64,000 nucleotides of DNA from a virus. This document shows positions 2,739 through 45,101 of this stretch, one piece after another; the first letter of the stretch is position 1; each line of letters opens with the position of its first letter. Position numbers and translations under genes: made by a program. The notes beneath the pieces were generated by a model. The model worked only from the letters and a program-made list of their open reading frames with translations, was not told where the DNA came from and searched no databases. The stretch covers positions 32,001 to 96,000 of IMG/VR virus record IMGVR_UViG_3300010413_002638; one strand, 5' to 3'.

Positions 2739-2992
2739 CAGTTTCCTACATCCACTGGCTCTGGTATTTGGGATTTAGTCGCAACGACTCTCAGTTGGCT
2801 CGGCTTAGCATACACTTTATAGTCGAACCCAACATTAATTACCAGCAAACCAGCTTCTTCGCTAATCACCCTGCCAGTGATGCCTTTGTTTCTGCAAAAG
2901 ACAGCCGCCAATTGGTCTGCTGTTTCGTTGAAAGCCACAATATCGCCAAAATTTATTGAGTCCATTTTTGTATTTCCTCTTGCCACCCACAT
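2738..2992 (-). CDS. hypothetical protein (true start may be 2965)
   Basis: Operon continuity. Confidence 0.5.
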   Translation of the reverse strand: MWVARGNTKMDSINFGDIVAFNETADQLAAVFCRNKGITGRVISEEAGLLVINVGFDYKVYAKPSQLRVVATKSQIPEPVDVGN

Positions 2993-4908: not shown

Positions 4909-4918
4909 CACTGGCTCC

Positions 4919-26172: not shown

Positions 26173-26534
26173 TTTTGATATTCCTCTAACTTGTCAGCAT
26201 GATTACTTTTTACATGCAGCGTCCGCCCACTAGTGCTAGACATAGGTTTGTTGCAAAATGGACAACACAGCTGATCGGTCGGAGCTGGTTCTGGTACTGG
26301 TTCCACCTGTGTGGGTCTGGGAATAGTATCTGGGTCCAATTCCCATGGTTGTATGGCAACCAATCTACCCTGGCGTTTTTCCATAGGTGCAGAATAGAGA
26401 CAATAACCAGCCTCCACTGCCCTATTTAGCAGCTCCTGATACTCTGAGTTATTCTTTAGTTTGTGCTGCGATATAATGCGGCTCGGTGGTTTAACCAGAA
26501 TGAAAGCAGTATGCTTGAAGTCAATCTTGTTCAT
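26136..26534 (-). CDS. C2H2 zinc-finger protein
   Basis: CPFC-x12-HVKSNH. Confidence 0.65.
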   Translation of the reverse strand: MNKIDFKHTAFILVKPPSRIISQHKLKNNSEYQELLNRAVEAGYCLYSAPMEKRQGRLVAIQPWELDPDTIPRPTQVEPVPEPAPTDQLCCPFCNKPMSSTSGRTLHVKSNHADKLEEYQKWLKSLGKKSKR

Positions 26535-26976
26535 CCGGCAAATGGTCCACAGTCTGTGAATCGTATTGTTGCTGAGATAGACAAATCCTGCTCGCTAGCG
26601 ACCGGCAGACAGCAAGATTTTCGTTATTGGGCGAATCAACTACAAATCCGACATCTTCGAAGAACCCCACCCATCGTACGAACTCATCTATCTCCTGCTT
26701 GTATCCTTTCACATCGCCCCTCAAATAATTTAATACTGTCTCGTCGGGGAAGTGCATAATTATTTTAAGTTTTCGACAGGCCGGATTAACAGCGGCCAAA
26801 GCCAATTTAGCAGCCTGGATCTTAGCCCTATCGATCTCGGAACCACCTAGCCCAAAACCCAACAACCGACACCGCACCTGGTCATTAGAGCTAAACATTA
26901 GAAGAATACCACACGAACTCAATTGCATGACCTCGTTGGCATTCCTGATAGAAATCGCACAGAAAATATCGATCAT
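26521..26976 (-). CDS. RNase HI-fold protein, apparently lacking the catalytic carboxylates
   Basis: Motif spacing of RNase HI (IFCAIS..CGILL; DRAKIQAAKLAL; IMHFPD; NENLAVCRSLA) with D/E positions replaced. Confidence 0.5.
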   Translation of the reverse strand: MIDIFCAISIRNANEVMQLSSCGILLMFSSNDQVRCRLLGFGLGGSEIDRAKIQAAKLALAAVNPACRKLKIIMHFPDETVLNYLRGDVKGYKQEIDEFVRWVGFFEDVGFVVDSPNNENLAVCRSLASRICLSQQQYDSQTVDHLPDEQD

Positions 26977-27467
26977 AGTAGATTATTCTTGAGATCTCGG
27001 ATCTCTGGGTAAGTCGATTTGGTATACGATTGTAGGGCACGCAACGCCTCAGCAATCCCCCGCAAAACAGCATTTTTTGCCGCTCGCTTGTCAGGTAGAC
27101 CCCGCGACCTACCCACCAACACCAACAATTGATCGGCGTGAGCCTTCACGTTGTCCGGGAATGTCTCATCCTTGGCTTGGGCCTTTATCATCCGTTCATC
27201 AAAAGAACGCTGTAGCCAAATAGCCAAAGATTCAATCACGTGGAAAGACAAATCAGCACATTCTTTCTCCACCCTGGCGAGGCAAGTTTTTCTATTACCC
27301 TCATTCTCCAAGGCGTTATACAAGTCATCCACCACATCAAGTAATTTCACCAGGAACACTGACAACTGGGGGCTTGGACCGCCCTGCAGCAGAACATGTG
27401 TATAGATGGAATGCTTCAATTCAGCAAGAGATTCGGTGGCCGACGGGCCAATAGGTGTCTGCATCAT
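26973..27467 (-). CDS. hypothetical protein
   Basis: Overlap-coupled within the operon. Confidence 0.6.
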   Translation of the reverse strand: MMQTPIGPSATESLAELKHSIYTHVLLQGGPSPQLSVFLVKLLDVVDDLYNALENEGNRKTCLARVEKECADLSFHVIESLAIWLQRSFDERMIKAQAKDETFPDNVKAHADQLLVLVGRSRGLPDKRAAKNAVLRGIAEALRALQSYTKSTYPEIRDLKNNLL

Positions 27468-28885
27468 TACTCACTCGGCATTTTGACGTTCAACATGTAT
27501 CCACCACGGCTCGACGCCAGGAACCGGTCAAACGAAAGACCCCACAACAATGGGTCCAAGACGTGAATCCCCAGCAGAAAACAAACCAGCGAACCGCCAG
27601 CACTTCCACGTGGACTGAAAGGCCAACCTCGTTTCTTTCCGTACTTAATAAGATCCTTGGTGATAAGGAAGTAGCTAGCGAACCCTTTATCAATAAACCG
27701 GTTCAATTCAATACTAGCCTGTTCCCTATAAGTCACCTCGCGGCCATCGATGAGAAATTTGGTCTTACATTTCTCCAATCCACGCCACCGCAATTCCTTA
27801 ATGACCAGTTTACACAACTCATTATCAGCATCAGATATCTCGGGATATTTGGGAGCAGTATCAACACCAAATTTCTCACAGCGATCGGCAACCATTAGGG
27901 TATTATCGCACAATTGATCAAAAGTTCGGTTGTCTATGCCGTTACTGTAATTGCCGTTACGGAACGTGGCCCATAATTCTGCCCGCGACTTCATGAATTG
28001 TTCATCACTATTGACATGGAATAGATCCGGCGAATCGATGGTTGTTTCCTGGGCGACAGCCATCATCAGTTTCTGCAATATGAAGTCAGCTCGATTGAGA
28101 TAATGACAATCATTGGTGAGTACAACAGGAATCTTGAAGAAATCAGCGATAGATATCAACTCACGAAATACCTTATCATCCTCTGGGATGCCAGGCATTT
28201 GAACTTCAAGATAATAGTCCTGGCCGAATGCTTTCTTGAACTTCTTGATGTATTCGACAGCCGCGTCTAATCTGGCCTTCTTTTTCCGCTCGACCAGAAC
28301 CTTTCCTTCTTTGTCGGTGAGCTGTTTATAGCGAAGCTCATGAGACACTGGCCCATTTAGACACCCAGACAACACTATGAGTCCTTCGCGAAACTCGCAA
28401 AGTTTATCGAACCAGATCCTATTGTATTGTGTACTACCCATACCGAATAGACCGGTCTCATAAGCTTGGGTTGTCAATCTTACGAGATTATGAAATCCGG
28501 TTTCATTCTTGCAAAGGACCGTCAAATGTCTATTGCGCCTGATACGGCTGGAAGTGTCTGGATTTTCTTCCTGCCATTCTTTCGAGCGAAATTTGATTCC
28601 TTTTGCCACCAGTTCTTGTCGTAATGGTTCGAAGTCATTGAAGTAAATTTCGCAACCTGGGATGTACTTCAAGCCGTGCTTCTTGAAGGCGAGATACATG
28701 TCAGGCACGGAAGCCATATGGCCGTGCTCTGTAGCACTCATAGCGGAGTAGCCGCGAGCTGCACATTGCTCGGCATACTGTTCTGGCGTAGCCACGCCGT
28801 CCAGAGCTGAAAAGACGGTGTGATTGTGCAGGTGCACGAAATCAGAAGGGCCGGTATATTCTTCAGGACTGAATTCTTCTGACAT
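27467..28885 (-). CDS. dnaE: DNA polymerase III alpha, N-terminal part (PHP domain to the RGS motif)
   Basis: FVHLHNHT, LDG, TEHG, GCE, HLTVL, SGC, NDCH, GFASYF, RGSAGGSLV, FDRFL; stops before PDID. Confidence 0.93.
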   Translation of the reverse strand: MSEEFSPEEYTGPSDFVHLHNHTVFSALDGVATPEQYAEQCAARGYSAMSATEHGHMASVPDMYLAFKKHGLKYIPGCEIYFNDFEPLRQELVAKGIKFRSKEWQEENPDTSSRIRRNRHLTVLCKNETGFHNLVRLTTQAYETGLFGMGSTQYNRIWFDKLCEFREGLIVLSGCLNGPVSHELRYKQLTDKEGKVLVERKKKARLDAAVEYIKKFKKAFGQDYYLEVQMPGIPEDDKVFRELISIADFFKIPVVLTNDCHYLNRADFILQKLMMAVAQETTIDSPDLFHVNSDEQFMKSRAELWATFRNGNYSNGIDNRTFDQLCDNTLMVADRCEKFGVDTAPKYPEISDADNELCKLVIKELRWRGLEKCKTKFLIDGREVTYREQASIELNRFIDKGFASYFLITKDLIKYGKKRGWPFSPRGSAGGSLVCFLLGIHVLDPLLWGLSFDRFLASSRGGYMLNVKMPSE

Positions 28886-29528
28886 TAGCCACTATTTCGT
28901 CGTTGATGTTGTACAATGACTGACTTCTAAACACTGTCTGGCACACTCGCTCGATCAACTCATTATCTAGGTCAGTCGTATCCGGGTAATTAGGCGTCGT
29001 TGGTTGTCTTCCCAAGCGGCGTATAAATCCTTCAAATATCGCTGCCGCGCTAGGCATATTAAAATTACAAGTTTGCCAAAATCTGCATAAGTAATTATAT
29101 AGCCTATTTCTGCCACCTTTCTTCAATAACCTGTCGAAGTTATCAACAATAGATTTTACGTGGATCTCTTCTATTTTGGCGGGATCGATCAACTCGATAA
29201 AGTAAGACCTGGCGTAATCGTTGGTGAGATCTGTTTGAAAGATCGTTCGCCTGGACTCTATTACGGCTTGGGTAATTAATTGGCGAACGTTTTCTGCTGA
29301 AAGCCCACATGATAACCCAACGGAAAACGCCTTACTCATATCGCGTAGGCCACGCAACGAATGCCTTTGATCGGTCTTTGCTTGCAACCAATTATCGAGA
29401 TTCGGCACCACCATCTTATGCAACGTATTATCAAATAGTTCTGGTAGATTCGCACTGTCGCGGAAATAAAATAGCTCTCCATCGATCTCGAAAACAGTCA
29501 CCGTTTTCTCAACATATCTAATAATCAT
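28863..29528 (-). CDS. hypothetical protein
   Basis: Long ORF upstream of dnaE-N; start uncertain. Confidence 0.6.
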   Translation of the reverse strand: MIIRYVEKTVTVFEIDGELFYFRDSANLPELFDNTLHKMVVPNLDNWLQAKTDQRHSLRGLRDMSKAFSVGLSCGLSAENVRQLITQAVIESRRTIFQTDLTNDYARSYFIELIDPAKIEEIHVKSIVDNFDRLLKKGGRNRLYNYLCRFWQTCNFNMPSAAAIFEGFIRRLGRQPTTPNYPDTTDLDNELIERVCQTVFRSQSLYNINDEIVANVRRIQS

Positions 29529-30486
29529 GTTATCTAACAATCGAAGAAGAGAAATAAGCGTCGTTGTCGTTTGCGGCGACCAATACCACGATTATCTCCG
29601 AACAGCTATAGACAGCATTCGAAGACAAACCATTCAGCCAGATGAGATAATAATAGTATACGACAACACCGAGCCAAGTATGACCTCCTACCCATATCTA
29701 CAAACACACAATGACAACCCTCTCGCCAGCCGCAGGGACGGATTTGCCGCTACCAGCAAAGAAACAGTCTTTTTCCTAGACGCCGACGACTATATCAGCG
29801 ATGATTATATCGGTTCTGGTCTGGCCCTCAAAACCGACAACAACATAGTCTACTCAGACGTCCGCCTCTTCGGAACAATGAACAAAACATTACGTTATTC
29901 ACCCAAATTCATGTCCCAAGAAAACTATCTGCATGTAGCCAGTCTCATCAGTCGCGACGCAATCGACATAGCAGACGCCTTCAACCCAATACCACCAGTC
30001 GATTGCCATGAAGACTGGGTATTCTGGCGGCGATTATTAAAAGCCGGATGCCCAACTATCAAACAACCTGGCATCCACTACCACCGAGAACATGAACACA
30101 ACCGTTCCAAGAAAATCGTGCAACACGAATTTCCCATAGCCAAGGGAATCTGGTGTGATACTATTGGCTTCGTTCGCGCGGACGGCCAAGAACACGAAGA
30201 GCAAGTCTTACAACAATGGCCACCAGAACAGAGAGAATTATACACCATAGATAACCCGGATATCAGAGCAATCAACAAAATCCTCCAGAGAACAAACGCT
30301 GACTATTTGTTATTCTATAGCACAAAAGACCTACAAATGATTAGAATGATGGCAGATCTAGACTACGGTGTGGCAATTGTCCAAGCCCGTGATTTACCAA
30401 TGTGGTATGGAACACTCATCGTCGTTGACCTACTCAAAGCTCAATCACCGTCTTACACGTTTAACGGCAAATCGATACTGGTCTAA
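29527..30486 (+). CDS. glycosyltransferase family 2
   Basis: ISVVV, SIRRQT..PDEIIIVYD, FLDADD, HEDW. Confidence 0.88.
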   Translation: MLSNNRRREISVVVVCGDQYHDYLRTAIDSIRRQTIQPDEIIIVYDNTEPSMTSYPYLQTHNDNPLASRRDGFAATSKETVFFLDADDYISDDYIGSGLALKTDNNIVYSDVRLFGTMNKTLRYSPKFMSQENYLHVASLISRDAIDIADAFNPIPPVDCHEDWVFWRRLLKAGCPTIKQPGIHYHREHEHNRSKKIVQHEFPIAKGIWCDTIGFVRADGQEHEEQVLQQWPPEQRELYTIDNPDIRAINKILQRTNADYLLFYSTKDLQMIRMMADLDYGVAIVQARDLPMWYGTLIVVDLLKAQSPSYTFNGKSILV

Positions 30487-31232
30487 TGGTAAACAAGATT
30501 TCCATATTGATGGCTATCTATAACTGTGCAGATTATCTGCCAGCGTCCATTGAAAGCATATTAGGCCAAACAGTAGGAGATTTCGAATTTATCATCATAG
30601 ACGACGGCTCAGACGAATCGGTAATGGAGATATTAGAATGGTACAACGACAGGCGTATCAAAATTATCAGAGTCGATGAGAATGTCGGCTTGACCCGTTG
30701 CCTAAACATCGCCTTAGACGTAGCTACTGGCAATATATTCGCACGTCATGACGGGGATGATATTGCATTACCAGACAGACTGGCAATAGAATTACCATTA
30801 CTTACTGGGCGTACCGGTCTAGTGAGCTGCTGGGCGGAGCCCATCAACGAAAATGGAGAGATAATCAAAGACGACTGGACAGAGCAAGAATTGCAAAGAG
30901 AAGCTGATGAAGTAGAAAAGTTGATGTCCCAAACAAACTGCGTGTTGGCCCCAGGAGCAATATTCACCAGAGAAGTGTTCGAACGAATAGGATATTTCGA
31001 TCCAGAAGTCAGATATGCACAAGATTATAATTACTGGTTGCGATTGATGAACGAGTTTACCATCAACATCGTGCCAGAGGTATTAGTGCAAAAGAGAGTC
31101 CATAAAGAATCAGTGTGGGGCCAAGAAGAAGAGCACGACCAAGATTGGCGACAAATAGCCAAAGACAGAGCCACAACAGATCCAACGATTTTTCAAGTAG
31201 AGCATCCCCCATTTCATTGGAGAAGGCATTGA
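30486..31232 (+). CDS. glycosyltransferase family 2
   Basis: ISILMAIYN, EFIIIDDGS, RHDGDD, AQDY. Confidence 0.92.
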   Translation: MVNKISILMAIYNCADYLPASIESILGQTVGDFEFIIIDDGSDESVMEILEWYNDRRIKIIRVDENVGLTRCLNIALDVATGNIFARHDGDDIALPDRLAIELPLLTGRTGLVSCWAEPINENGEIIKDDWTEQELQREADEVEKLMSQTNCVLAPGAIFTREVFERIGYFDPEVRYAQDYNYWLRLMNEFTINIVPEVLVQKRVHKESVWGQEEEHDQDWRQIAKDRATTDPTIFQVEHPPFHWRRH

Positions 31233-32422
31233 AACTTTCACATTACGTAGTTCGTACTTTTTCTGGTGAACAAGATATACTTTTTCATACAGTCACAAGA
31301 AAAGTGCTGCTAGCAGATGCCGATGAGAAAACATTGGCAGAGAATTTCTTTTATGCTGGCCAAGAGAAACAAGCTGTCCTGGCGAAACTCGCACAACCAC
31401 CGGATGGTTGGTTTCACTTTCATTTATCTCCGACCTGGGAATGCAACCTTCGCTGTACACATTGCATGGTACGACATAGACTCATCAAAGATGACACCAA
31501 TATTCTAGAGGTCGCACCAGTAATTCGTTTAGCACAACAAAGCAAACAACTATTCGACGTACGTCGAATGTCAGTGAACTTCTTCGGTGGCGAAAGCATG
31601 CTAGCCATCGATAAATGCAACGAAATCGTCGATGCGTTCAACGGGATTGATCTTGAACTGATGCACTTTCAGTTGTTCACGAACCTCACCATGGAACTAA
31701 CCGACAAGCATCTTGAATTCTTCCGGCAAGTCGATAGTATCGGCGTCAGCATAGACGGTCTGGAACAGATACACAATGCTCAGCGTATGCCGATTTCTCC
31801 CATGAATCCATTCGAAAAAACGATGCAAAATCTCAAAATATTGGTCAAGCAAGGCTGGAAAGAAAAAATCTCGATACAAGCCTGCCTAAGCGACCAACAT
31901 AATACACTAGATAATAGAGTTTCGTTCTACAGAACCATTCTGCAATTTGGCATTCGTCCACATAGGATTATGATTGGAACTATCGCTCCAACCAAGACCA
32001 ATCCCACACCAGGCGACCATTACAAAAAAGGATTGCATCAAGTCAAATTGACTGACGGATTCTGTTGTAAGTATAGATTAAATAATCTGGTCATCGACAA
32101 CACTGGGAATGTCTTCTCAGATTATTATTCATACACCAAAATAGGCACAGTGAATGATGACTTATTGATGCTATTGGGTGAAAAAGAAAAAATTACATTA
32201 GAAACAGCCCCGGCTCTAAATGATCCAAAATGTCAGAAATGCCCAGCACTAGGCTTTTGTTGGGGCGGTTGCTCTGTCACAGAAAATGATGCACCACTTA
32301 GTACATATTGTAACCAAGACGGCATCATAGCTGTTATTGAAGAGGCAGCCAAGCTCGGCCAATTTAAGTTAGGAAATGAAAATGGCCTCCCCATCGACAG
32401 CCAAACCCACTTATTTCACTGA
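31229..32422 (+). CDS. radical SAM/SPASM-domain protein, putative peptide maturase
   Basis: TTG start overlapping the upstream TGA; CNLRCTHC, FFGGE, FTN, VSIDG...HNAQR; SPASM CC...G....CQKCPALGFCWGGC...C; MKLSHY...ILFHTVT N-terminus as in peptide maturases. Confidence 0.88.
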   Translation: MKLSHYVVRTFSGEQDILFHTVTRKVLLADADEKTLAENFFYAGQEKQAVLAKLAQPPDGWFHFHLSPTWECNLRCTHCMVRHRLIKDDTNILEVAPVIRLAQQSKQLFDVRRMSVNFFGGESMLAIDKCNEIVDAFNGIDLELMHFQLFTNLTMELTDKHLEFFRQVDSIGVSIDGLEQIHNAQRMPISPMNPFEKTMQNLKILVKQGWKEKISIQACLSDQHNTLDNRVSFYRTILQFGIRPHRIMIGTIAPTKTNPTPGDHYKKGLHQVKLTDGFCCKYRLNNLVIDNTGNVFSDYYSYTKIGTVNDDLLMLLGEKEKITLETAPALNDPKCQKCPALGFCWGGCSVTENDAPLSTYCNQDGIIAVIEEAAKLGQFKLGNENGLPIDSQTHLFH

Positions 32423-32654
32423 ACAAGAGAGAAAAGAGCTTGGGCTTCCCGATGACCACGATATAGCCGTACTGTTAGACAGATGTAAGGCAAATGATTT
32501 ATCCCCATTTGCTGCCGCCACCAACTCGCTGGGATATGATGTAACCGGCGAGCCGTACTGTTATTGTGGTTTCTGCAAACCAGAGTCCGGGATCAACGGA
32601 ACCTGTAATGGCCCCTCGGCGTCTTTATCTGATACAATACCAATCCCACTCTAG
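32382..32654 (+). CDS. putative RiPP precursor peptide 1 (Cys-rich)
   Basis: AGGA RBS; 90 aa; core PYCYCGFCKPESGINGTC; directly follows the rSAM/SPASM gene. Confidence 0.7.
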   Translation: MASPSTAKPTYFTEQERKELGLPDDHDIAVLLDRCKANDLSPFAAATNSLGYDVTGEPYCYCGFCKPESGINGTCNGPSASLSDTIPIPL

Positions 32655-32662
32655 GAAAGAAA

Positions 32663-32938
32663 ATGACACAATCCCCTACAATCGGCAGGCCCACCTATTT
32701 CACTGAACAAGAGAGAAAAGAGCTTGGACTCCCTGACGACCAAGATATCGCCATAATGTTAGACAGATGCAAAGCAAAGGATTTGTCTCCCTTTGCCGCA
32801 GCTACTAATTCACTAGGGTATGACGTAACCGGCGAGCCATATTGTTATTGTGGCTTCTGCAAACCAGAATCTGGAATCAACGGAACCTGTGATGGTCCTT
32901 CGGCATCATTATCACATTCAGTAGCCGGGCCAGAATAA
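32663..32938 (+). CDS. putative RiPP precursor peptide 2 (paralog of peptide 1)
   Basis: AGGA RBS; 91 aa; near-identical protein with many synonymous DNA differences. Confidence 0.7.
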   Translation: MTQSPTIGRPTYFTEQERKELGLPDDQDIAIMLDRCKAKDLSPFAAATNSLGYDVTGEPYCYCGFCKPESGINGTCDGPSASLSHSVAGPE

Positions 32939-32950
32939 AAAGTACACCCT

Positions 32951-34078
32951 GTGATACATTCCTATCTGGAATATTATTCTCATCCGACAATCAAAAATGC
33001 CAAACGATTGTGGGAATCTATCAGAGAATATGACTATCACGAACCACTAGATGACCTAATCGCTGCTCGCAAAGTCATCAAGCCCAAACTACACTTAGCC
33101 GATCGCTACCTGTTCAGCAACGGAACAGTAGGCAAAACAAGAGCATACCTGATAGGACCGCACGCGGACTTCTGGATCAAACAAATAGAAGACTTCGTAA
33201 AATATCGAACCACCAGATATATCAATATCCTAGATCTATTATCCTTCAACCACCACAAAATAGCTCGAATGCCCGAGCCGATCACAGACGACTCATATTA
33301 TTATATTGCTGCAGCAGACTACCGCCAAATTGACAAATTCATACAGGAATTAGCAAGACTCGGTAATTACGGCTTCAACGCCGCGCCGAACACATGGTTA
33401 TATCTGCTCAGCCTACCGGCATTTCGAGAATTTCTATCATCCCGCCAGATAATATGCTTATCGACCGGCTGGGACGGATTCTATAAACAACCGCCAACCA
33501 ATATCCATATGAACGATAATATGGTAAATTGGACAACCGGGATGAATTTCTATACCTGCCAGTACGGAACCAGACACTACCTACAAACATTCGCAATCGC
33601 ACCAGAAGGCATCGTCAATCTGTTAAACCTGGCTTGCCAACCAGTCTTGCCAGTCGATGATCTCATGCAGATCTCTCCGGTAGTCAAACGTTGTCAGTGT
33701 GGAAGAAATTTTCGCGAAATCTCTTATTTTCCGCATTATATCTGGTTGCCCAAATCATCTGACGGTGAAATAATTTATGATCTACAGCTGGCCGACCACT
33801 TTAAAGCTTCTTATCTGAACTTACAATTTATTCAGATCGGCCAAACAATTGATGTCTTGTATATCTCTAACAGTAACAACGACCTGTTAGAACATGACCA
33901 AAACATCATCACCACATTTTTCGAAAGCCATGGATTGGAGACGGTGTTCAAACGTGATAAATATCGTAGTATCAATCGCAAGTACCATGTTTTTCTTAGA
34001 ATAGCAGCACCAACCACTTACAAATCCTGGAATCTGGTATGCACCAATTCGCAACCGTCATCACAGCCGACCATATAG
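32951..34078 (+). CDS. divergent adenylate-forming enzyme (phenylacetate-CoA ligase/CapK-like)
   Basis: FSNGTVGK (P-loop-like), LSTGW, FYTCQYG..H, LLN...DD, RCQCGR in the family's order. Confidence 0.55.
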   Translation: MIHSYLEYYSHPTIKNAKRLWESIREYDYHEPLDDLIAARKVIKPKLHLADRYLFSNGTVGKTRAYLIGPHADFWIKQIEDFVKYRTTRYINILDLLSFNHHKIARMPEPITDDSYYYIAAADYRQIDKFIQELARLGNYGFNAAPNTWLYLLSLPAFREFLSSRQIICLSTGWDGFYKQPPTNIHMNDNMVNWTTGMNFYTCQYGTRHYLQTFAIAPEGIVNLLNLACQPVLPVDDLMQISPVVKRCQCGRNFREISYFPHYIWLPKSSDGEIIYDLQLADHFKASYLNLQFIQIGQTIDVLYISNSNNDLLEHDQNIITTFFESHGLETVFKRDKYRSINRKYHVFLRIAAPTTYKSWNLVCTNSQPSSQPTI

Positions 34079-34923
34079 ACAAGACGTTGGTGCTTCTTGA
34101 ATCGCTCCGAACATTCAATGAAGCCGAATTACACGCACTAGTCATCGACTATAACCCGCGTATAATGGCCAGCGTCGATTTCGACCACTTGTACGTGCAT
34201 GATCTCCAAGAATTACTAGGAGATAGAGATCACGGCGTTGTTGCCAGAATCATCGCCAACAAATATGCAAACTTGCGCGACGAATTACGCTGGGCACTCA
34301 AAGCCCCATTCATCAAAAGTTTACGCACAGAACATCCAGAAATCTGCTACGTCGATTGCGACCTATGCTTTTATGCCGACTACCAATTTCTGATGGATAA
34401 ATTGGCTACCTCGGCTATCTTGCTCACGCCGCACTGGCGCGAAATAAACCCGATGACTATAGATTTCCGCTACAACTTCAAGCACGGAATCTATAATGCT
34501 GGCTTCGTCGGCTTCGGGAACGGGTGCGAAGAGATGCTCGATTGGTGGGAAGAAATGTGTGCTATCGAATGCACCAAATCCGATCGAGCCTTCACATACG
34601 TTGACCAACGATATTTGGATCTGGTACCAATCTATTTCAACAATGTCGAAATCATACAACACTTTGGTTGTAATGTCGCAGCCTGGAACACCTCTTATCT
34701 CAAACGTGAGGTGGTCGATGGAGAAACCTTAATCCAAGGCGAACCTATTATCTTTATCCATTACTCGCCAATCACCATCGATTATGTCGAGAATGGCAAA
34801 GATAACGCTCTGTATGATTACTACAACCATTATCGACTAGCACTGCGACAAACCCGCAAGAAGCTGGTAGGATTGGGCCTAAAAGACTGCACATCCAAAC
34901 CAGTCGAAGACCAAATATTGTAA
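34039..34923 (+). CDS. GT-A nucleotide-diphospho-sugar transferase
   Basis: ELRWALK, YVDCD, LTPH, GIYNAGF, DQRYLD, GCNVAAWN, FIHYS. Confidence 0.85.
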   Translation: MHQFATVITADHIDKTLVLLESLRTFNEAELHALVIDYNPRIMASVDFDHLYVHDLQELLGDRDHGVVARIIANKYANLRDELRWALKAPFIKSLRTEHPEICYVDCDLCFYADYQFLMDKLATSAILLTPHWREINPMTIDFRYNFKHGIYNAGFVGFGNGCEEMLDWWEEMCAIECTKSDRAFTYVDQRYLDLVPIYFNNVEIIQHFGCNVAAWNTSYLKREVVDGETLIQGEPIIFIHYSPITIDYVENGKDNALYDYYNHYRLALRQTRKKLVGLGLKDCTSKPVEDQIL

Positions 34924-35813
34924 TGAACCACTTTTCGACTGTTATAACAGCGAACCACCTCGACAAAACCCTCGTATTGCTGGATTCACTCAACGAATTC
35001 GGTGAAGCAACATTACATACCCTCGTTGTTGATGAAATCCCAAACATCCAATTCACCAATCTAATCATTTACAGCCTCAAAGACCTAGCAAAGAAACAAT
35101 TGGCCGCCAGAACACTGGCAATAAAACACGCAGAAGAACAAGATGAATTACGATGGGCACTAAAACCCACATTCATGCTACATCTAATGCAAGAATACAC
35201 CAAGCTCTGTCACGTAGACGCAGACATCTGCTTCTATGATGAATACCAATTTCTATTCGACGAATTGAACGATTATCCGGTAATCCTCACGCCGCACTGG
35301 CGTCAGATATATCAATATGGGCCAGATTATATCCATAATTTCAGCGACGGCTTGTACAACGCTGGGTTCATTGGGTTTAGCAGAACGGAACACAAGGGCT
35401 CGAATATGGTGTCAGGTATGAGAGCACTTCGATGGTGGTCGAAAATCTGTGCTAAAGAATGCACGCAATCATCCGAAAATCACACTTACACCGACCAACG
35501 ATACCTGGACCTATTCCCGATCTACTTCCGAGCTAAAGTATTGCGACATTATGGATGTAATGTGGCTGGTTGGAACGCTAGCTATCTACAACGAACCAAG
35601 GAAGACGAACACATCCTCGTTCGTGGCATGCCACTTATCTTCATCCACTTCTCTGAAATTACAGAACGCACCATCGCGGACGGTCTAGATGATTTATTAC
35701 GCGAGCCATACAGAAAATATCTAATCGCATTACAGAAAAAACGCCAGCAGTTGGCAAAAGCAAAACTCGGCATGTGTATTTCTAAACAACGATATCCTTC
35801 TCAGGCAATCTGA
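34923..35813 (+). CDS. GT-A nucleotide-diphospho-sugar transferase (paralog of the previous gene)
   Basis: ELRWALK, HVDAD, LTPH, GLYNAGF, DQRYLD, GCNVAGWN, FIHFS. Confidence 0.85.
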   Translation: MNHFSTVITANHLDKTLVLLDSLNEFGEATLHTLVVDEIPNIQFTNLIIYSLKDLAKKQLAARTLAIKHAEEQDELRWALKPTFMLHLMQEYTKLCHVDADICFYDEYQFLFDELNDYPVILTPHWRQIYQYGPDYIHNFSDGLYNAGFIGFSRTEHKGSNMVSGMRALRWWSKICAKECTQSSENHTYTDQRYLDLFPIYFRAKVLRHYGCNVAGWNASYLQRTKEDEHILVRGMPLIFIHFSEITERTIADGLDDLLREPYRKYLIALQKKRQQLAKAKLGMCISKQRYPSQAI

Positions 35814-37128
35814 AAGGGATTTTCTTCAAATAGTAGCTAGGCTTGTCGCGAAAAGCAGAAATAAATGCTGAAAACGACGACATTCCAGCAACAAAAACAT
35901 CAGCATCTATCATGCTTTTAGCTACCCTATATAATCGCGGATAGACCTGATCGCAAATTTTTACGTTTTCACCGACAAAATCACCCACTAGGTCATTCAC
36001 AGGGCCTTGCGTGTAATAAACGACATTCAATCGTTTGCCAGGATGGTCATCTCTCACACGATCCAACACCCTATCATACTCGCTCTTGGGAATGATTCTG
36101 CCACCATTATCATGTAGCCGACCACCACCACGCACATAGACAGCCACATTCAACACACCAGCCGTCGCCTCGAAATCAGACGCAAAAAAATTATAGAAAT
36201 TAGTCCGTTTAATAAGAGATTCCCACAACCGCAAATTCTTTTGATACAAACCCGGTAGTGTATCACCCTGCTGCTCAGCTTCGAACAATTGCTTGAAACC
36301 AAAAAACGTTGACCTCCTAAGAATAACGCTAGTTCCAGACGGAAGCCCCCGCAAATATTGTCTCGCCAACGTAAGTGGCATACCCCACCACTTCATCTTC
36401 TCATCTGGCGTGTAAATGTCGCAAGCTGGTTCCTCAATGCTGTGCTTATCGAAAAAATCCGCGAAATTGAAATAATAGTTAAACATCTCCTCGCCCCATT
36501 CATGCGGATAAAAGCCAGTATAATGATACCCAAGACCAAAAATATCCGCCAAAATAGGGCCACTCACAATATCATTAAATTGATGACCTATGCGGCCCCA
36601 TTCCGGGAGCATCGACAACCATATATTCCTAGGGTTCGTAACGGGTGGTAAAAACTCCAACAACTCCGACTCATCAATCACCCTTAACAGTTCGCCCTGG
36701 CGCTGCTCGAATTCTTGTTCATCAACACCCACCATCAGTCTTTTACTATTGGGGCGCTTCAAAACGATCATACCGGGTATGATAGTAACAGAATCGACTT
36801 CTTCCAGCCGCCTAATTTCTAGAATATCCCGCCATCTTTCGACGCACCTGATTATTAGCAAGCACCCATTATCATTTAAGCGCGAGATTGCTGCATGAAA
36901 GTTGTCCTGCACGACCACATCATTCAACAAAATAAGATCATACTTTCTGGCACAACTTGCAAAGAAACTAGAAGCAGAACCGCGAAAATTACCACCGGCT
37001 GTCGGATGAACACCAGTTTTATCTGTCAAACTTATCCGACTAAATATCGCATCGTCACACCCCAGCTCTAAATAGGACGAAAAAGAATATCTGTCGGCTA
37101 AAGAGTTCAATAGTTGGGTTATATTCAT
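35782..37128 (-). CDS. degenerate methyltransferase domain fused to a GT11/GT23-like (fucosyltransferase-type) domain
   Basis: YLELGC, YDLIL; GRIGHQ, VAVYVRGG, ADVFVAGMSSFS. Confidence 0.6.
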   Translation of the reverse strand: MNITQLLNSLADRYSFSSYLELGCDDAIFSRISLTDKTGVHPTAGGNFRGSASSFFASCARKYDLILLNDVVVQDNFHAAISRLNDNGCLLIIRCVERWRDILEIRRLEEVDSVTIIPGMIVLKRPNSKRLMVGVDEQEFEQRQGELLRVIDESELLEFLPPVTNPRNIWLSMLPEWGRIGHQFNDIVSGPILADIFGLGYHYTGFYPHEWGEEMFNYYFNFADFFDKHSIEEPACDIYTPDEKMKWWGMPLTLARQYLRGLPSGTSVILRRSTFFGFKQLFEAEQQGDTLPGLYQKNLRLWESLIKRTNFYNFFASDFEATAGVLNVAVYVRGGGRLHDNGGRIIPKSEYDRVLDRVRDDHPGKRLNVVYYTQGPVNDLVGDFVGENVKICDQVYPRLYRVAKSMIDADVFVAGMSSFSAFISAFRDKPSYYLKKIPFRLPEKDIVV

Positions 37129-38108
37129 AAGACACTTTTGATGATATCTGCGAATCTTTTTGCTAGATATTTTTTGTCGCGACCTTTCATTGCATTTTGG
37201 AAGGCCAGCACTCGCATTTCATCATATTCAGGATAATTGGCTAGTATGTCAGCTAATATTTTCTCCAAGTCCGAAAAATCAGTCTTACATACAACATACG
37301 GAATATCAGGCCAAGAAACGGCAAAAGAAGTATCTGGCTTAATTAGAACCGCTCCCACCAGAGCGGCCTCAAAATCTCGAAAACACGTAATATCATATCC
37401 CCAAGGAGATAAACATACCTTGCTTCGTGTCATTATATCGAAATATTCTTGAAAATCAACAAACGTATCGCTGGATGGTATGCGAACTCTAACATTATAT
37501 CTATCCCGCAAATCACAAACAGTATTCACCGCCACCTGGCGATGAAGGCGAGTTTCGGCATCTGGATAGAATTCGCCTATGTCGCCAAGCATCATAGATA
37601 TATCCAATTCCTTTTGTTGATCCAACACAAAAGGTAGTTTCTGATAAATGGGACGTTGGAAATGTTCCCAAGATATAAGATTAGCAAAAACATGTATCTT
37701 ATCAGAAAGATGACTCACGCGAGGCTGTCGCATTAACGTTGGTTCGCGATCAGCCATTATTGCAACATGCTTCTTATAGCAGTAAAATTCCTTATCATAG
37801 TCCAATGGATCTACGAATTTGGACGTCTTCATCATTGCCTTGACATTGTCGCGTATTAAGAATTCGCGTAGATTCCACCAATTGATCTCCGGACCCAAAT
37901 AGAGATCATGTAAAATAGTGGGTTTATCGTCGTCCAGCACGCGACGCACATAATCGACGTCCCGTGAGCCCTGAACTAATTTGATATCGCCTGGGCCGTC
38001 CGTAAAGATGATGCCCAGGGCACGTAATTCATCCTCTAGGCGTAGCCAGCATTGCAAATGAAAATTGAAATATCTAGCACAATTTGGTTTAATATCGAGC
38101 TTGATCAT
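37125..38108 (-). CDS. GT-B glycosyltransferase
   Basis: SKVCLSPWGYDITCFRDFEAALVGAVLIKPD. Confidence 0.75.
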   Translation of the reverse strand: MIKLDIKPNCARYFNFHLQCWLRLEDELRALGIIFTDGPGDIKLVQGSRDVDYVRRVLDDDKPTILHDLYLGPEINWWNLREFLIRDNVKAMMKTSKFVDPLDYDKEFYCYKKHVAIMADREPTLMRQPRVSHLSDKIHVFANLISWEHFQRPIYQKLPFVLDQQKELDISMMLGDIGEFYPDAETRLHRQVAVNTVCDLRDRYNVRVRIPSSDTFVDFQEYFDIMTRSKVCLSPWGYDITCFRDFEAALVGAVLIKPDTSFAVSWPDIPYVVCKTDFSDLEKILADILANYPEYDEMRVLAFQNAMKGRDKKYLAKRFADIIKSVL

Positions 38109-39206
38109 CTAATCGACTATGCCTTTTTCAGCTGCCTCCAAACAGCCCGTAGCCACGCAATATAATGGTATATCAGAACAAGTAATCGTACCAATATCGA
38201 AGGGTACGTCCAATTCGTCAAACTTCTTGGAAACTCGTTTTACAAATCCCTTTGGTGAGCTAGTTCCACCGGCCATATAGACATTAATAGCTTCCCCGTC
38301 CAACCGTGCCTCGGATTCATTCTCCTCGAATCCCTTGATGATCCCGTCAATCACCGTGCTTATCAGCACATCATAATGTAGTACGATATCCAAGCCGATC
38401 CGGTCGTCTGGTTCTTTGCCCGGCGTCAAATCAACACTCATTTTCCGCTTAGACACCGTGGTCGGCGTTTCTTTGGCTGTTTTCTTGCGAATCTTAGACG
38501 CCAAAGCACTGTAGCCATGCCTGATTGCGACTTGCTCATCAATCCAATCACCAGCACCGACCCAGCAGAAAGAGAAGATCTCGAGCCCATATTTCACGTA
38601 GCTGACAGTGACAGTCCCGGCACCCCACGATATACCGATACCAGTACCATCTTGACTCATATTAATAACAATAGCGTGTGATTCACGAATGGCCTTGCGT
38701 TGAATCTTCGCCTTGGTTTCATAGCCATCAATCACGATATCAACGACCCGCTCATGGTAATCGATATTCAGATCTTTATTAAGAGCTGGGGCAGTGGTGC
38801 AATAACAGACCTTCAATTGATCACTGAACTTGCCAACTTCGTTCTCGGCCATTTCCATTAATCCCTGAACAATACTGCCCAGAATGGTCATGGCTTCTTC
38901 ATCGGCGGAAATGCCACCTTCGGCCATCGGTCGGCGAAGAGTGTCGTTTTTAGCGTAAGCAAATTCTTCGGCATCTTGGCCCAACACGACGGCTTGACCA
39001 TCTGGCATTTCGACCCATCTGGCTGCTCGTTTGGTTCCGTCGCTGCGGATTTTGTTGGGGTCATCGAGCATGTTTTTGATGAAGGGAGTGGCTCGCTCGA
39101 AGGGCCAATATCCGTTAATTTCGCTAATATAATGGACTTGACCTTCGTCGTCGCGGTAGGCGAGCACTACGGTGCGGGTGCCAATATCGATACCCAATTG
39201 TTTCAT
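38109..39206 (-). CDS. actin-like ATPase (MreB/volactin-like); the frame stays open upstream to 39653
   Basis: Phosphate-1 GIDIGT, RPMAEG, ESHA, phosphate-2 GISWGAGT, GAGDWID, adenosine MAGGTS; AGGAG RBS. Confidence 0.85.
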   Translation of the reverse strand: MKQLGIDIGTRTVVLAYRDDEGQVHYISEINGYWPFERATPFIKNMLDDPNKIRSDGTKRAARWVEMPDGQAVVLGQDAEEFAYAKNDTLRRPMAEGGISADEEAMTILGSIVQGLMEMAENEVGKFSDQLKVCYCTTAPALNKDLNIDYHERVVDIVIDGYETKAKIQRKAIRESHAIVINMSQDGTGIGISWGAGTVTVSYVKYGLEIFSFCWVGAGDWIDEQVAIRHGYSALASKIRKKTAKETPTTVSKRKMSVDLTPGKEPDDRIGLDIVLHYDVLISTVIDGIIKGFEENESEARLDGEAINVYMAGGTSSPKGFVKRVSKKFDELDVPFDIGTITCSDIPLYCVATGCLEAAEKGIVD

Positions 39207-39315
39207 TATACATCTCCTGCCGGTGTAAACATCACCAAGTCTATATACCTGGTAATTCTGTGTTGTGGTTATATCCAGCAAAAGCCCCTCAACCTGAGGG
39301 ACGGCGACGGGGAGG

Positions 39316-39747
39316 TCACTTTCTTCGACGACGGGCTCCGGGAGGGGTTCCGGTGATATCACAACTGGCACCGGCGTCGGCGGGACCGGGGTCGGCGGGG
39401 TCGTCGGGGGTGGCATCACTGACCTGACCACCTTCACTTCCTGTTTCGCCACTGTTTCCTTGTTGAATTTGTAAATCGTCATCTGTACGAACTGCGGACC
39501 CGAACCCGCCCCGTGGCCTTGGCGGTTTGAAGAGGTTGGGAGCGACGACTTCTGGTGGGAGTGGTTCGACTCTTCGAACCGTGATCGTTGAATCCTCTGT
39601 TGGAGATGAGACCGCAACTCCATCGCCAATTTTTTGCCGTTTGCTGAGAACATTCACCAGGGCCTCTAAAACATGGATAAGTCTAACTCCTAGATAGGCT
39701 AGAACTCCAACAAAAGCAGCAGAAATGGCAACAAAAGTCCAAATCAT
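39316..39747 (-). CDS. membrane-anchored hypothetical protein
   Basis: N-terminal TM helix; ATGA overlap with the upstream gene. Confidence 0.55.
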   Translation of the reverse strand: MIWTFVAISAAFVGVLAYLGVRLIHVLEALVNVLSKRQKIGDGVAVSSPTEDSTITVRRVEPLPPEVVAPNLFKPPRPRGGFGSAVRTDDDLQIQQGNSGETGSEGGQVSDATPDDPADPGPADAGASCDITGTPPGARRRRK

Positions 39748-41162
39748 GCGTGATTAACTCGAAAGAGAGGAATACCTGAACTAAGAGCCAACTTACCAAG
39801 CTGATCTATACCATTATCATAGAAAGCAAACCGCCTCCGTGTCTGCTCAGACTCCGTCCATATCTGTCCATCATTATAATAATCTAGCCTCGAAGTATGA
39901 CTCTTTCCCTCTATAATTTTATTATCACAACCAAATAGAGAAATACTACGCGGCCCCAAGAACAACGCAAAATGAGTAGCCATATGCACACAACTACCAA
40001 AATCACAAAACGGCGGATTAACCGACCTCAACACACCAATATCACCAATCTCAAACTGAACAGCACCCGGCACCACATGCCCGGCAAAAACATACTCTCC
40101 AGCCGTCTGATGTTCCAAAACATACGGAACAATAAAGCGTTGCTCAGGATATTTCTCACGCAGCTCGGAAATCACCTGCACGGAATTAGTCACCACATAG
40201 TCAGCATCCACCAACAAACCCACATAATCCACAGCAATCACAATATCATGATTATTGATCTGTGACAGATTCAAATAATCCAATGACGGACCATCTCCCA
40301 CCACAGCAATCCGTTTACCATGAGCTGTATTCCGCAACAAATAGACACCCAACAACTCCGGCTGCAAATGCTCCAACCACCACTGCGATGACCGCTCCGC
40401 CGATTCCGCAAACCTCACCAGCTCATCGATCCGACCAATATCAACCGAGCCTGGTTCCAACTCGCATGCCTCATAGAAATGCGTGATATGCTTCGGGAAC
40501 CAAGCTTCCATCATCCGTGCCAGATTACGCCTCGCTTCTGATTCCACCTCGGGGATTACTGCAATATAGCTATCATCCACCACCAATACTTCGCCACCGG
40601 CCATCCACGTCTTCAACGATAGACAAATATTATCGCCTGGGCCTGGGCTAGCATCGTCATCAAATCCACCAATTTCGTCAAAGAATTTCTTATTAATTGC
40701 TAAGCAGAACGCGGCCAACGGCGATTTATCGCCAAATCGCCGATTATACATTGCCATGCTCCATCGCATGCCATACCGTCGCCACCCTCTATCCTCTGTA
40801 GCCCACAGATTAGTGTCAAGAGAAAATGCGAGAGGGCTTACAAGTCTTTTCTCAGCTAGTTCACTAACGACTGGTAAGAACCAATCTTTTCCGAACTTAA
40901 CAGGAGCGGTAAGAAATACAAGCTGTTCGGAGGTGGCCAGTTTGGCAGCGGTATTCCAGGCTCGAGATCTACCCACTTGTTCTGTTTTAGATATAATATC
41001 CCAATCGTTCCACGGAAAACCGTGATCTTCCAGCGGAATGGCGTTTGTTTCATCACAAAGAATGATTTGTTCGACGTACTGTGGAGGAGTTTTGTCGATT
41101 AAGTCATTCAAAGTGCGTTCTATATGATCGCTGTTGCGACAGTAGATTATAAAAGTGGCCAT
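39744..41162 (-). CDS. GT2 (GalNAc-T-like, degenerate) fused to a DUF115/Maf/CstII-like domain
   Basis: QIILCDE, GRSRAWN, IGGFDD, LSLKTWMAGG; RIAVVGDGPSL, ISLFGCD. Confidence 0.72.
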   Translation of the reverse strand: MATFIIYCRNSDHIERTLNDLIDKTPPQYVEQIILCDETNAIPLEDHGFPWNDWDIISKTEQVGRSRAWNTAAKLATSEQLVFLTAPVKFGKDWFLPVVSELAEKRLVSPLAFSLDTNLWATEDRGWRRYGMRWSMAMYNRRFGDKSPLAAFCLAINKKFFDEIGGFDDDASPGPGDNICLSLKTWMAGGEVLVVDDSYIAVIPEVESEARRNLARMMEAWFPKHITHFYEACELEPGSVDIGRIDELVRFAESAERSSQWWLEHLQPELLGVYLLRNTAHGKRIAVVGDGPSLDYLNLSQINNHDIVIAVDYVGLLVDADYVVTNSVQVISELREKYPEQRFIVPYVLEHQTAGEYVFAGHVVPGAVQFEIGDIGVLRSVNPPFCDFGSCVHMATHFALFLGPRSISLFGCDNKIIEGKSHTSRLDYYNDGQIWTESEQTRRRFAFYDNGIDQLGKLALSSGIPLFRVNHA

Positions 41163-41179
41163 GAAAATATATACATCAC

Positions 41180-41335
41180 CTAGAATTTGTAACCGAAGAA
41201 TTCAATAGATTCTGCATATCCCTCGGCTACTCTTTCTCGCATTTCGTCAGTGTACGCTTCTTGATATGGTCGGTCAGAAAAGCAATTGACACGTGGCAAG
41301 ATGCGTTGAGCAATATCTAGATTATCATATTCCAC
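41180..41335 (-). pseudogene. C-terminal fragment of a sulfotransferase-like gene
   Basis: LPRVN...RPYQEAYTDEMRERVAEGYAESIEFFGYKF matches sulfotransferase C-termini; no PAPS-binding motifs upstream. Confidence 0.45.
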
Positions 41336-43008: not shown

Positions 43009-43078
43009 ATGGTAATCCCATTTATGGTATTTTTGGTGGACACCGGCACACAAATATTTATCTATTAGGATTAGATAG

Positions 43079-43333
43079 TTAGGGTTCCTCGCCGTGGACC
43101 CAACTAACATGCTTGTTATGTTCTTTATAGATCTGCTTCACGTCCTCCGGTATGAAATCTATCGGCCCTTCCCAAGCTAATTTACCATTGTAGAGGATGC
43201 GAATCCAACGACCGTGCTGATAACAGATTATTTCTTCTGCGTTGAGCTTTTCTTCTTTGGGCTTTGAGAAGAGTTTCTGGAGTATTTTACGCAATATCTT
43301 CATATAGTGGTGCTCCCCCGTCCTCATCATCAT
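43079..43333 (-). CDS. hypothetical protein
   Basis: Short ORF; start uncertain. Confidence 0.45.
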   Translation of the reverse strand: MMMRTGEHHYMKILRKILQKLFSKPKEEKLNAEEIICYQHGRWIRILYNGKLAWEGPIDFIPEDVKQIYKEHNKHVSWVHGEEP

Positions 43334-43388: not shown

Positions 43389-44094
43389 TGATGATTCGGC
43401 ACTCTTTAGCGAACACTGTCACTTCAAGATCACAGCAAGCACCAGAACTATTACCAGTTCGCAGGGGGAGGCTAGCACATCCTGGTCGAAATCTGCGTCC
43501 ATGTTCCCGCCGTCATCACTTCCTTCCCAGGAAGCCGCTGTACTCTACCAGTTTCGGTACCTCGGGAACTTCGAGTTCTCTGATTATCACCCCAACAAGT
43601 ATCCTACCTCATTATCACTGCCAATGCTCCCGGCTTCGTCAAGGCTACGCACATCAAACTCACATAACAATCAAACAAATTTCGCACTGTCAACATTCTT
43701 GCCACTATGGGCGCTTCAACTAATTTCGCAAAAATCAGACAATTCAGGCGGTTCAACTTTCAGACAATTAATGAGTGCCTCGCCCCACCGTTGGTACATT
43801 GGGGGTGTCAATAATAGATAACCAGGTCCGGGTCCTCAGCCTAATTCATTCGTTTTTGGACGCTTGTCATCCTGAGGCGCGGCGTAGGACATGGGGGCTC
43901 TCATTGCTGAGCCCAGGCCCAAAAGGACCCTAAACGAACTATAACAAACCACTGTTGTCCAGGCCGACTGAGGTTCAACGGAACACCAACTGTGGCAATT
44001 TGGGCCACTATGTACGACGGGATTGACTACACCGTCGGTAGCTAAATACCAGAGCAACGCACCACAACAACAAATCCAATTTGTCGAGGATCAT

Positions 44095-45090: not shown

Positions 45091-45101
45091 AATATACAGA
45101 T

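Follow-up and report, generated by a model that had tools for sequence, protein, structure and literature searches.

Pathways for RiPPs, peptides made by the ribosome and modified after translation, are known mainly from cellular genomes. In the PapB ranthipeptide and SCIFF (CteB) systems, a radical S-adenosylmethionine (SAM) core joined to a SPASM domain acts on a small, adjacently encoded peptide that donates the Cys residues; ruminococcin C (RumMC, NF035951) is a sactipeptide with a C-x-C donor pair; and the glycocins of the sublancin type as well as mycofactocin (MftC with MftF) bring together a ribosomal peptide and a GT2 glycosyltransferase within one operon, to which mycofactocin adds a radical SAM/SPASM enzyme. 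Here we describe a locus that shares features with each of these systems and is located in 64,000 nucleotides of phage DNA (positions 32,001 to 96,000 of the IMG/VR virus record IMGVR_UViG_3300010413_002638; hereafter, the window). In this locus, the gene for a radical SAM/SPASM enzyme is followed by the genes for two small paralogous peptides, A and B, and for a 375-residue protein with a fold similar to that of PaaK (Table 1). Sequence comparison and structural modeling suggest that these genes probably represent the conserved core of a phage-borne RiPP-type pathway, in which a PaaK-like ATP-dependent ligase would join a radical SAM/SPASM maturase and its one or two precursor peptides.

The similarity to each of the described systems is partial. 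The radical SAM core, the SPASM domain and a small adjacent peptide that would donate Cys are shared with the PapB and SCIFF/CteB maturases, but in the phage locus no RiPP recognition element (RRE) is detected, the precursor family is unrelated, the PaaK-like partner is obligatory and the distribution is almost restricted to phages. As in ruminococcin C, the core starts with C-x-C and has potential acceptors on one side only, but the leader is different and dedicated protease, exporter and immunity genes are missing. The 375-residue protein resembles the PaaK-family AMP ligases in the ANL superfamily fold and has a P-loop-like segment (S-N-G-T-V-G-K-T-R in the window protein) and an invariant Lys near the C-terminus, whereas its identity to these enzymes is only 10-15%, it is about 50 residues shorter and the P-loop is not conserved in its family. 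Finally, GT2 genes and a ribosomal peptide share an operon, as in glycocins and mycofactocin; however, the peptide cores lack the two-nested-disulfide pattern of glycocins, showing instead C-x-C(-x-x-C) and one later Cys, the glycosyltransferases are not conserved with the cassette and, unlike MftA, the core is hypervariable.

An initial annotation of the window, made from the sequence alone, had listed a packed plus-strand run of the radical SAM/SPASM gene, two paralogous peptide genes and further enzymes, with two GT2 genes upstream, and all these genes are indeed in place. Its central proposal, that in a very large phage a radical SAM/SPASM maturase modifies two Cys-bearing precursors encoded next to it, is now supported by co-occurrence, selection, the fold and a docking model. 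It did not recognize the core as that of any named RiPP class; no cut-off of a named thioether-family hidden Markov model (HMM) is reached, and the glycocin pattern is absent. The precursor family, the radical SAM/SPASM subfamily, the fixed PaaK-like partner and the near-exclusive presence in huge phages are new features of a known kind of system, the radical SAM/SPASM RiPPs. A search of the literature yielded no paper on this system and no paper pairing a PaaK-like enzyme with a radical SAM RiPP maturase, and we know of no such enzyme that is a fixed partner of these maturases.

It would be unusual for a RiPP pathway to be conserved in very large phages and nearly restricted to them. If real, the pathway would add a precursor family defined by an F-T-x-x-E leader and a C-x-C core, a radical SAM/SPASM subfamily with Asp at a canonical cluster-ligand position and a PaaK-like ligase as a fixed partner, for which there is no precedent. 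It would also raise the question of what a lytic phage could gain from a modified, plausibly glycosylated peptide that is produced in the absence of an exporter. With only three to eight genes, the system lends itself to direct testing by co-expression.

Co-occurrence and conservation of the three-gene core

The comparison included 14 loci from IMG/VR and Joint Genome Institute (JGI) metagenomes and one locus from a genome collection. The relatives of the window radical SAM enzyme comprise a small family, with identities of 30-72%. In all 11 distinct loci with a readable flank, the radical SAM gene is adjoined by a small open reading frame (ORF) on the same strand that contains the leader motif and C-x-C. 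This ORF is downstream of the enzyme gene in eight loci (the window, L001/2, L003, L004/5, L008, L010, L011/12/14 and L013) and upstream in the other three (L006, L007 and L009). The sole locus without a peptide ORF is L016, a contig of 3.6 kb whose sequence starts within the radical SAM gene. Among 1388 small stop-delimited frames of the window and 12 loci, the leader motif is present in 21 and a late C-x-C in 64; both motifs are combined in 12 frames, all of which (12/12) are neighbors of the radical SAM gene, compared with about one expected if the motifs were independent, although, the motif having been derived from these same peptides, this control speaks to specificity only.

The searches recovered no homologs of the peptide away from a radical SAM gene; such homologs would have spoken against the initial reading. 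A word-based search of 5.8 billion proteins with the peptide returned its paralog as the only match; in a profile search of 1.84 billion representative proteins, P0016 and P0017 were the only true relatives; and a scan of IMG/VR with a five-sequence peptide alignment (A7) led to already known loci only. Three other profile matches (P0014, P0015 and P0018) were rejected as spurious, being long repeat proteins. The peptide P0017, the radical SAM enzyme P0008 and the homolog of the 375-residue protein P0021 are each recorded on a contig of 16,388 nucleotides, and P0003 and P0020 each on a contig of 4,380 nucleotides, co-occurrence in both cases being read from the equal sizes alone. When all proteins of the cluster were compared with the loci using BLAST, only the radical SAM enzyme, the peptide and the 375-residue protein were found to travel together. 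This triad is present in the window, L001/2, L003, L004/5, L007, L010, L011/12/14 and L013, and a homolog of the 375-residue protein is encoded in every locus whose visible flank extends for 2.2 kb or more.

Peptides A and B share 84% identity at the protein level and 86% at the DNA level. Both are preceded by AGGAAA-n-GAAA-ATG, so that 32382 is the likelier of the two possible starts of peptide A. Across the 75 conserved codons, the two genes differ by 31 synonymous and five non-synonymous changes, with a synonymous rate (dS) of about 1.2 and a non-synonymous to synonymous ratio (dN/dS) of 0.024 by the method of Nei and Gojobori; outside these codons, at both ends, the ratio is 0.74, which is close to free evolution. 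Given the ratio of 0.024, both peptides are, judging from the differences between the paralogs, translated and subject to strong purifying selection, and the duplication is old.

Peptide A starts with the leader motif Y-F-T-E-Q-E-R-K-E-L-G-L-P and contains the core Y-C-Y-C-G-F-C ... N-G-T-C. The peptides next to the radical SAM genes of the other loci (56-100 residues) show no more than 17-38% identity to peptide A. Like it, however, they have an N-terminal [F/Y/L]-T/S-x-x-E, often in the form F-T-E-E-E-[K/R]-x-x-[L/F]-G-L-P, and, toward the C-terminus, an invariant C-x-C, which usually takes the form C-x-C-x-x-C with one later Cys; in L006, L007 and L009, C-x-C is at the extreme C-terminus. 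In an alignment of ten sequences (A4), T15 and E18 of the leader and C62 and C64 of the core are invariant and C77 is nearly so, the rest of the core being hypervariable. Two further regularities, the spacing [D/E/N]-x-x-C before the first Cys (7/12 peptides) and a recurring A-S dipeptide (9/12), were noticed post hoc in related sequences and are not evidence. The N-x-S/T sequons present in several cores occur at about the frequency expected by chance, and the idea that they could be meaningful was dropped.

The radical SAM gene uses a TTG start at 31229 that overlaps the stop of the preceding GT2 gene (TTGA) and follows the ribosome-binding site GGAGAAGG; this choice agrees with the M-K-L-S-H-Y-V N-terminus of the homologs. 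The protein exceeds the cut-offs of both PF04055 (40.9 bits versus 29.5) and the SPASM model TIGR04085 (35.4 bits versus 27), the latter being the comparison that the initial annotation had proposed for the maturase. In the alignment of 11 homologs, the radical SAM cluster motif C72-x3-C76-x2-C79 is nearly invariant, and the cysteines of the SPASM region (C279, C280, C335-x2-C338-x5-C344-x3-C348 and C361) show almost no variation or none. The strongest NCBIfam matches are all to peptide-modifying enzymes, namely PapB (NF047865; 66.8 bits), HxsB (63.3) and anSME (62.4), followed by SCIFF-related enzymes, CcpM, DynA, YhhB, CefB and RumMC. None of these matches comes near the equivalog cut-off (PapB, 66.8 versus 340; SCIFF, 44.7 versus 425; RumMC, 42 versus 720; CcpM, 49.3 versus 500). 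By sequence, the nearest solved structures are CteB (5wgg; E 6e-16), ChlB, anSME and SkfB. Thus, as far as profile scores can tell, the window enzyme belongs to an unnamed subfamily among the peptide-modifying SPASM enzymes and is a member of no named family; the nearest families and solved structures include none of the sugar- or cofactor-modifying enzymes whose presence would have undermined the assignment. An anSME-like formylglycine reaction was considered and rejected, there being no C/S-x-P-x-R motif.

Structure prediction for the enzyme together with the peptide, another of the comparisons proposed at the outset, places the leader on the enzyme. The controlled complex prediction for the radical SAM enzyme and peptide A reached a score of 0.74, compared with 0.00 for the best of three controls; 58 of 80 solved complexes and 2 of 110 mismatched pairs attain the same mark, counts that are rough here, since the alignments were the author's own. 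Agreement between the runs extends to at least 32% of contacts, and the predicted local distance difference test score (pLDDT) of the partner is at least 47. In the model, leader residues 11-14, 18, 22-25 and 30-48 contact residues 199-253 of the enzyme, and core residues 61-67 (Y-C-Y-C-G-F-C) contact residues 275-286 and 345-350, where C279/C280 and C344/C348 are located. The prediction supports a mode of binding in which the leader would be held by the enzyme with C-x-C-x-x-C beside the SPASM cysteines.

The third member of the triad, the 375-residue protein, showed no match in Pfam or NCBIfam at E values up to 5, and a profile of its family found nothing among PDB sequences. An AlphaFold2 (AF2) model built with nine homologs has a pLDDT of 78.9 and a predicted template modeling score (pTM) of 0.81, and the top matches of this model in a Foldseek search of the PDB are all PaaK-family AMP ligases (E 8e-9 to 1e-6, probability 1.0, TMq 0.46-0.51): BT_0428 (4rvn), PaaK1 (2y27), 6six, NatL2 (6tm4), AjiA1 (6wuq) and ClxA (9s45). 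According to the model, the protein has a two-domain, PaaK-like ANL fold. The family pattern of the P-loop-like segment is S-N-G-S/T-x-x-x-x-R, in which R64 alone is invariant; the other invariant residues are D236-D237, C248-x-C250-G251 and K344, near the C-terminus. The earlier label of a degenerate adenylate-forming enzyme is fair for a protein that is PaaK-like at the level of the fold, matches no HMM and does not conserve the P-loop.

Proposed pathway and competing explanations

In the pathway that appears most probable to us, and of which we infer the occurrence of the modification, its chemistry, the substrate of the ligase, the glycosylation and the biological role, the N-terminal leader of the peptide (the helix region F-T-x-x-E ... 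G-L-P) would dock on the enzyme, and the C-terminal core with the invariant C-x-C would enter the active site near the auxiliary Fe-S clusters. Radical chemistry initiated from SAM would then produce intramolecular cross-links. We favor thioethers formed by the C-x-C cysteines, of the kind seen in sactipeptides and ranthipeptides, a proposal that we put forward tentatively, its chances being a little short of even. The PaaK-like enzyme would activate a carboxylate, whether on the peptide or on a small acid, and then ligate it, and the variable neighboring enzymes, in the window two GT2 and two GT8-like transferases, would decorate the product. With neither an exporter nor a leader protease, the product would act within the infected cell or be freed at lysis.

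Several observations weigh against this scheme or parts of it. Conservation of the P-loop does not extend across the family of the 375-residue protein, and in L007 the loop is partly deleted, so that ATP use by this protein is not assured. None of the 11 radical SAM homologs matches a PqqD-like RRE at E values up to 1, and the N-terminal extension of the enzyme is only about 65 residues long. The canonical SPASM G-x4-C cysteine is replaced, across the 11 homologs, by the nearly invariant Asp298, which implies unusual ligation of the auxiliary cluster. Solved complexes of radical SAM enzymes with peptides exist (CteB with CteA, SuiB with SuiA), and the success of the complex prediction may therefore partly reflect likeness to them. 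The window's own glycosyltransferase genes are outside the conserved cassette, recurring in the closest relative only, and the phage is rich in glycosyltransferases generally, so that their adjacency could be coincidental and is weak evidence. Lastly, no protease, exporter or immunity gene was found, and the 112.8-kb record, which covers about 32% of the genome, encodes neither a C39 peptidase nor an ABC transporter, so that the earlier remark that the cluster lacks an exporter and a leader protease extends to the whole record; the absence of such genes is unusual for a secreted RiPP.

Under the strongest of the competing explanations, the small protein modified by the radical SAM enzyme stays whole, as a subunit, a structural or virion component or a host-takeover protein, in the manner of the QhpC gamma-subunit, which QhpD matures. 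Besides the missing protease and exporter, such a role would be compatible with the length of the peptides, 56-100 residues being long for RiPP precursors, and with the presence of the quinohemoprotein maturase model TIGR03906 among the weak NCBIfam matches. We nevertheless consider it unlikely: the hypervariable core outside C-x-C and the nearly freely evolving tails (dN/dS of 0.74) fit a small product better, the peptide has no confident fold, and a protease could be encoded elsewhere, given that the record covers only about a third of the genome. In numbers, the Atlas pLDDT of the peptide is 0.42, its pLDDT in the complex runs is 47-54, and an Atlas search for look-alike clusters found none above 0.8. 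The same lack of a confident fold argues against a stand-alone metal-binding domain.

A metal-binding or regulatory role of the small ORFs is nonetheless part of a second explanation, in which the radical SAM enzyme and the PaaK-like protein act on a sugar, a nucleotide or a lipid within a glycan island that serves virion, host-envelope or DNA modification. The cassette is indeed surrounded by many glycosyltransferase genes and related genes, including a GT2 domain at 39744-41162 and a cytidylyltransferase at 20466-21269, and phage glycosyltransferases that hypermodify DNA are known (bioRxiv 10.1101/2023.12.21.572611). However, peptide modification is the function of all the closest enzyme families and solved relatives, the leader/core architecture and the strict adjacency are those expected of a substrate, C-x-C-x-x-C is placed by the model on that side of the SPASM domain which faces the active site, and the L003 cassette has no adjoining glycosyltransferase, all of which makes this explanation distinctly improbable. 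Still further down is a reading in which the peptide would be sacrificed as the scaffold of a small cofactor or metabolite derived from it, as with PQQ or mycofactocin. This reading would accommodate a radical SAM/SPASM enzyme and a GT2 gene sharing an operon, the weak match of the GT2 protein to the MftF model TIGR03965 (E 2.3e-9, far below the cut-off) and the missing exporter, but has very little to recommend it when precursors of this kind strictly keep their reacting residues whereas here C-x-C alone is invariant and the core varies widely in length and composition, and when no PqqB/C/D-like or MftB/D/E-like genes are found among the scanned neighbors.

Returning to the RiPP-type pathway, its broadest version would be a clade of huge phages with a RiPP class of their own, in which C-x-C is cross-linked by a distinct radical SAM/SPASM subfamily, a dedicated PaaK-like ligase takes part and the product is decorated with glycans (sulfated in some lineages), some phages having two cassettes or tandem precursors, for a phage-specific purpose. 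This conjunction is possible, though we lean slightly against its holding in full. If true, the product could help, for example, in taking over the host, in excluding rival phages or in killing neighboring bacteria at lysis.

Variable neighbors of the cassette

The plus-strand run of the window (29527-35813) consists of eight genes the ends of which overlap or abut (Table 1). A scan for promoters and terminators remained at the chance level (27 versus 21.6, and 12 versus 8.7).

Table 1. Genes of the window run, of a second cassette in L004 and next to cassettes of other loci (coordinates are those of the respective locus)
Locus	Feature	Coordinates	Strand	Support or remark
Window	GT2-family glycosyltransferase, 319 residues, first of run	29527-30486	+	PF00535, 44.6 bits
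Window	GT2-family glycosyltransferase, 248 residues, stop overlaps radical SAM start	30486-31232	+	PF00535, 87.4 bits
Window	Radical SAM/SPASM enzyme, 397 residues, TTG start	31229-32422	+	PF04055 and TIGR04085 above cut-offs
Window	Precursor-like peptide A, 90 residues (from 32382) or 92 residues (from 32376)	32382-32654	+	
Window	Precursor-like peptide B, 91 residues	32663-32938	+	
Window	PaaK-like (ANL superfamily fold) protein, 375 residues	32951-34078	+	AF2 model and Foldseek
Window	D-x-D protein (D106-C-D108), 294 residues, probable retaining GT-A (GT8-like) transferase	34039-34923	+	
Window	Paralog of the 294-residue protein, 296 residues	34923-35813	+	47% identity
L004, second cassette	PaaK-like gene, convergent	2668-3771	+	More canonical T-S-G-T-T-T-G loop
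L004, second cassette	Radical SAM enzyme	3733-5064	-	21% identity to window enzyme
L004, second cassette	ORF of 67 residues ending C-G-C-S-G-C-C	5077-5280	-	
L003	Methyltransf_24			No glycosyltransferase alongside
L004	Two GT2-like genes and methyltransferase			
L006	GT61			55.5 bits
L007	GT2 and Sulfotransfer_2			
L008	Sulfotransfer_2			
L012	GT2			

Outside the triad, the two GT2 genes, the two GT-A-like paralogs and two convergent genes (35782-38108) recur only in the syntenic L001/L002. The first GT2 protein has a 51% identical homolog in L001 only, and the second likewise has a homolog only there, its EpsE/TuaG-like NCBIfam matches being far below the cut-offs. The GT-A-like gene is present in a single copy in L001, compared with two in the window.

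The initial annotation had called the 294- and 296-residue proteins two paralogous GT-A transferases. The paralogy is borne out by their sequence identity, and the GT-A identity is only probable: neither protein has a Pfam match, the D106-x-D108 motif of the 294-residue protein is invariant in three sequences, and the Atlas feature neighbors of this protein include GT8 clusters at a score of 0.98, with GT8 on 18% of members. A low-confidence model (pLDDT 55) resembles YeGT (VIA Z 10.5), SetA (10.3) and glycogenin (9.5), the matches in the Z range from 10.5 to 8 also including Lgt1, TcdA-GT and LgtC. With this weak to moderate likeness, both proteins are probable retaining GT-A transferases of the GT8-like type.

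A constant core with variable tailoring neighbors is the typical pattern of RiPP clusters. Because differing families of glycosyltransferases and carbohydrate-type sulfotransferases adjoin the cassette in other loci (Table 1), glycosylation of the product, with sulfation in some lineages, is plausible, the balance being about even. The earlier suggestion that the peptide is possibly glycosylated thus holds on the strength of the varied families beside other loci, and not on that of the window's own glycosyltransferases, which are not part of the conserved cassette.

The cytidylyltransferase mentioned above (minus strand; CTP_transf_3, 122 bits) is of the CMP-Kdo/CMP-sugar type and fits the many glycosyltransferase genes of the phage; another glycosyltransferase is encoded at 2953-4968, and the gene at 39744-41162 combines the GT2 domain with an MptE-like domain.

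Source phage, distribution and further cassettes

The window is phage DNA, as it encodes a DnaB-like helicase, a DNA helicase, an SbcC-like nuclease and a DnaE-type polymerase split into two genes. The IMG/VR virus contig from which it derives is 112,804 nucleotides long, and because CheckV rates this record as 32% complete, a full genome of roughly 350 kb is implied, in accord with the previous view of the phage as very large. A related contig, that of the L004 phage, comprises 340,072 nucleotides.

The family is almost restricted to viral and metagenome contigs. The cluster DNA had no match among 50,697 phage records (blastn), and no close relative of the radical SAM enzyme was found in cultured phages either by blastn of the cluster or by tblastn of the protein; the sole tblastn match was a gene of Agrobacterium phage Atu_ph07, with 24% identity over 72% of the length. 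The annotated context of that gene is unlike the window, with two radical SAM genes amid hypothetical proteins. Atu_ph07 (L027; NC_042013.1, 118122-127048) is a cultured jumbo phage of 490 kb in which the two annotated radical SAM genes are two genes apart. Among prokaryotes (one genome per species, 185,579 species), a relative is encoded on one short contig of a metagenome-assembled genome only.

Some phages contain more than one cassette. The phage of L001 has a second one (L003), and the 340-kb phage of L004 has a second, strongly diverged cassette beside its DnaE gene (L004 2668-5280; Table 1). A further locus, L021 (5401-9374 of IMGVR_UViG_3300035698_017052), encodes a distant PaaK-like protein (24% identity over 160 residues), then a zinc-ribbon protein, a 69-residue ORF rich in Cys and Gly at its C-terminus and, finally, a 493-residue radical SAM protein; judging from its gene content, it may be another phage peptide cassette of similar general design.

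The two DnaE genes of the window are both on the minus strand and encode the C-terminal half (914 residues, 23428-26172) and the N-terminal half (472 residues, 27467-28885), which match phrog_405 (E 4e-109 and 7e-101, respectively); three small ORFs are located between them (26136-27467). The counterpart of the N-terminal half in L001 is 82% identical, and in L004 the radical SAM cassettes flank the C-terminal half.

The window also contains a second radical SAM island (44023-47023, plus strand), with genes for a 355-residue radical SAM protein, a 202-residue ORF, a 258-residue radical SAM protein and a Methyltransf_24 protein (61.3 bits), adjoining a Metallophos gene (47291-48385, minus strand). 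No C-x-C peptide was seen in this island. In the relative phage, the L003 cassette has a Methyltransf_24 gene on one side and, on the other, a Metallophos-like gene whose N-terminus is similar.

Two further minus-strand genes are located between the cassette and this island. The 514-residue product of the first (38109-39653) matches the Pfam family Volactin (PF25216; 139 bits versus a cut-off of 35, residues 153-508), has a Pro-rich N-terminal extension and is 77% identical to its counterpart in L001. The second (41317-43110) encodes a 597-residue protein that has no Pfam or PHROG match and shows a Cys-rich C-terminal part and short collagen-like G-x-y runs (G-P-K-G-D-K-G-R-D-G-V-P-G and G-P-D-G-L-T-G-D-P-G), features suggesting that it may be a fiber protein.

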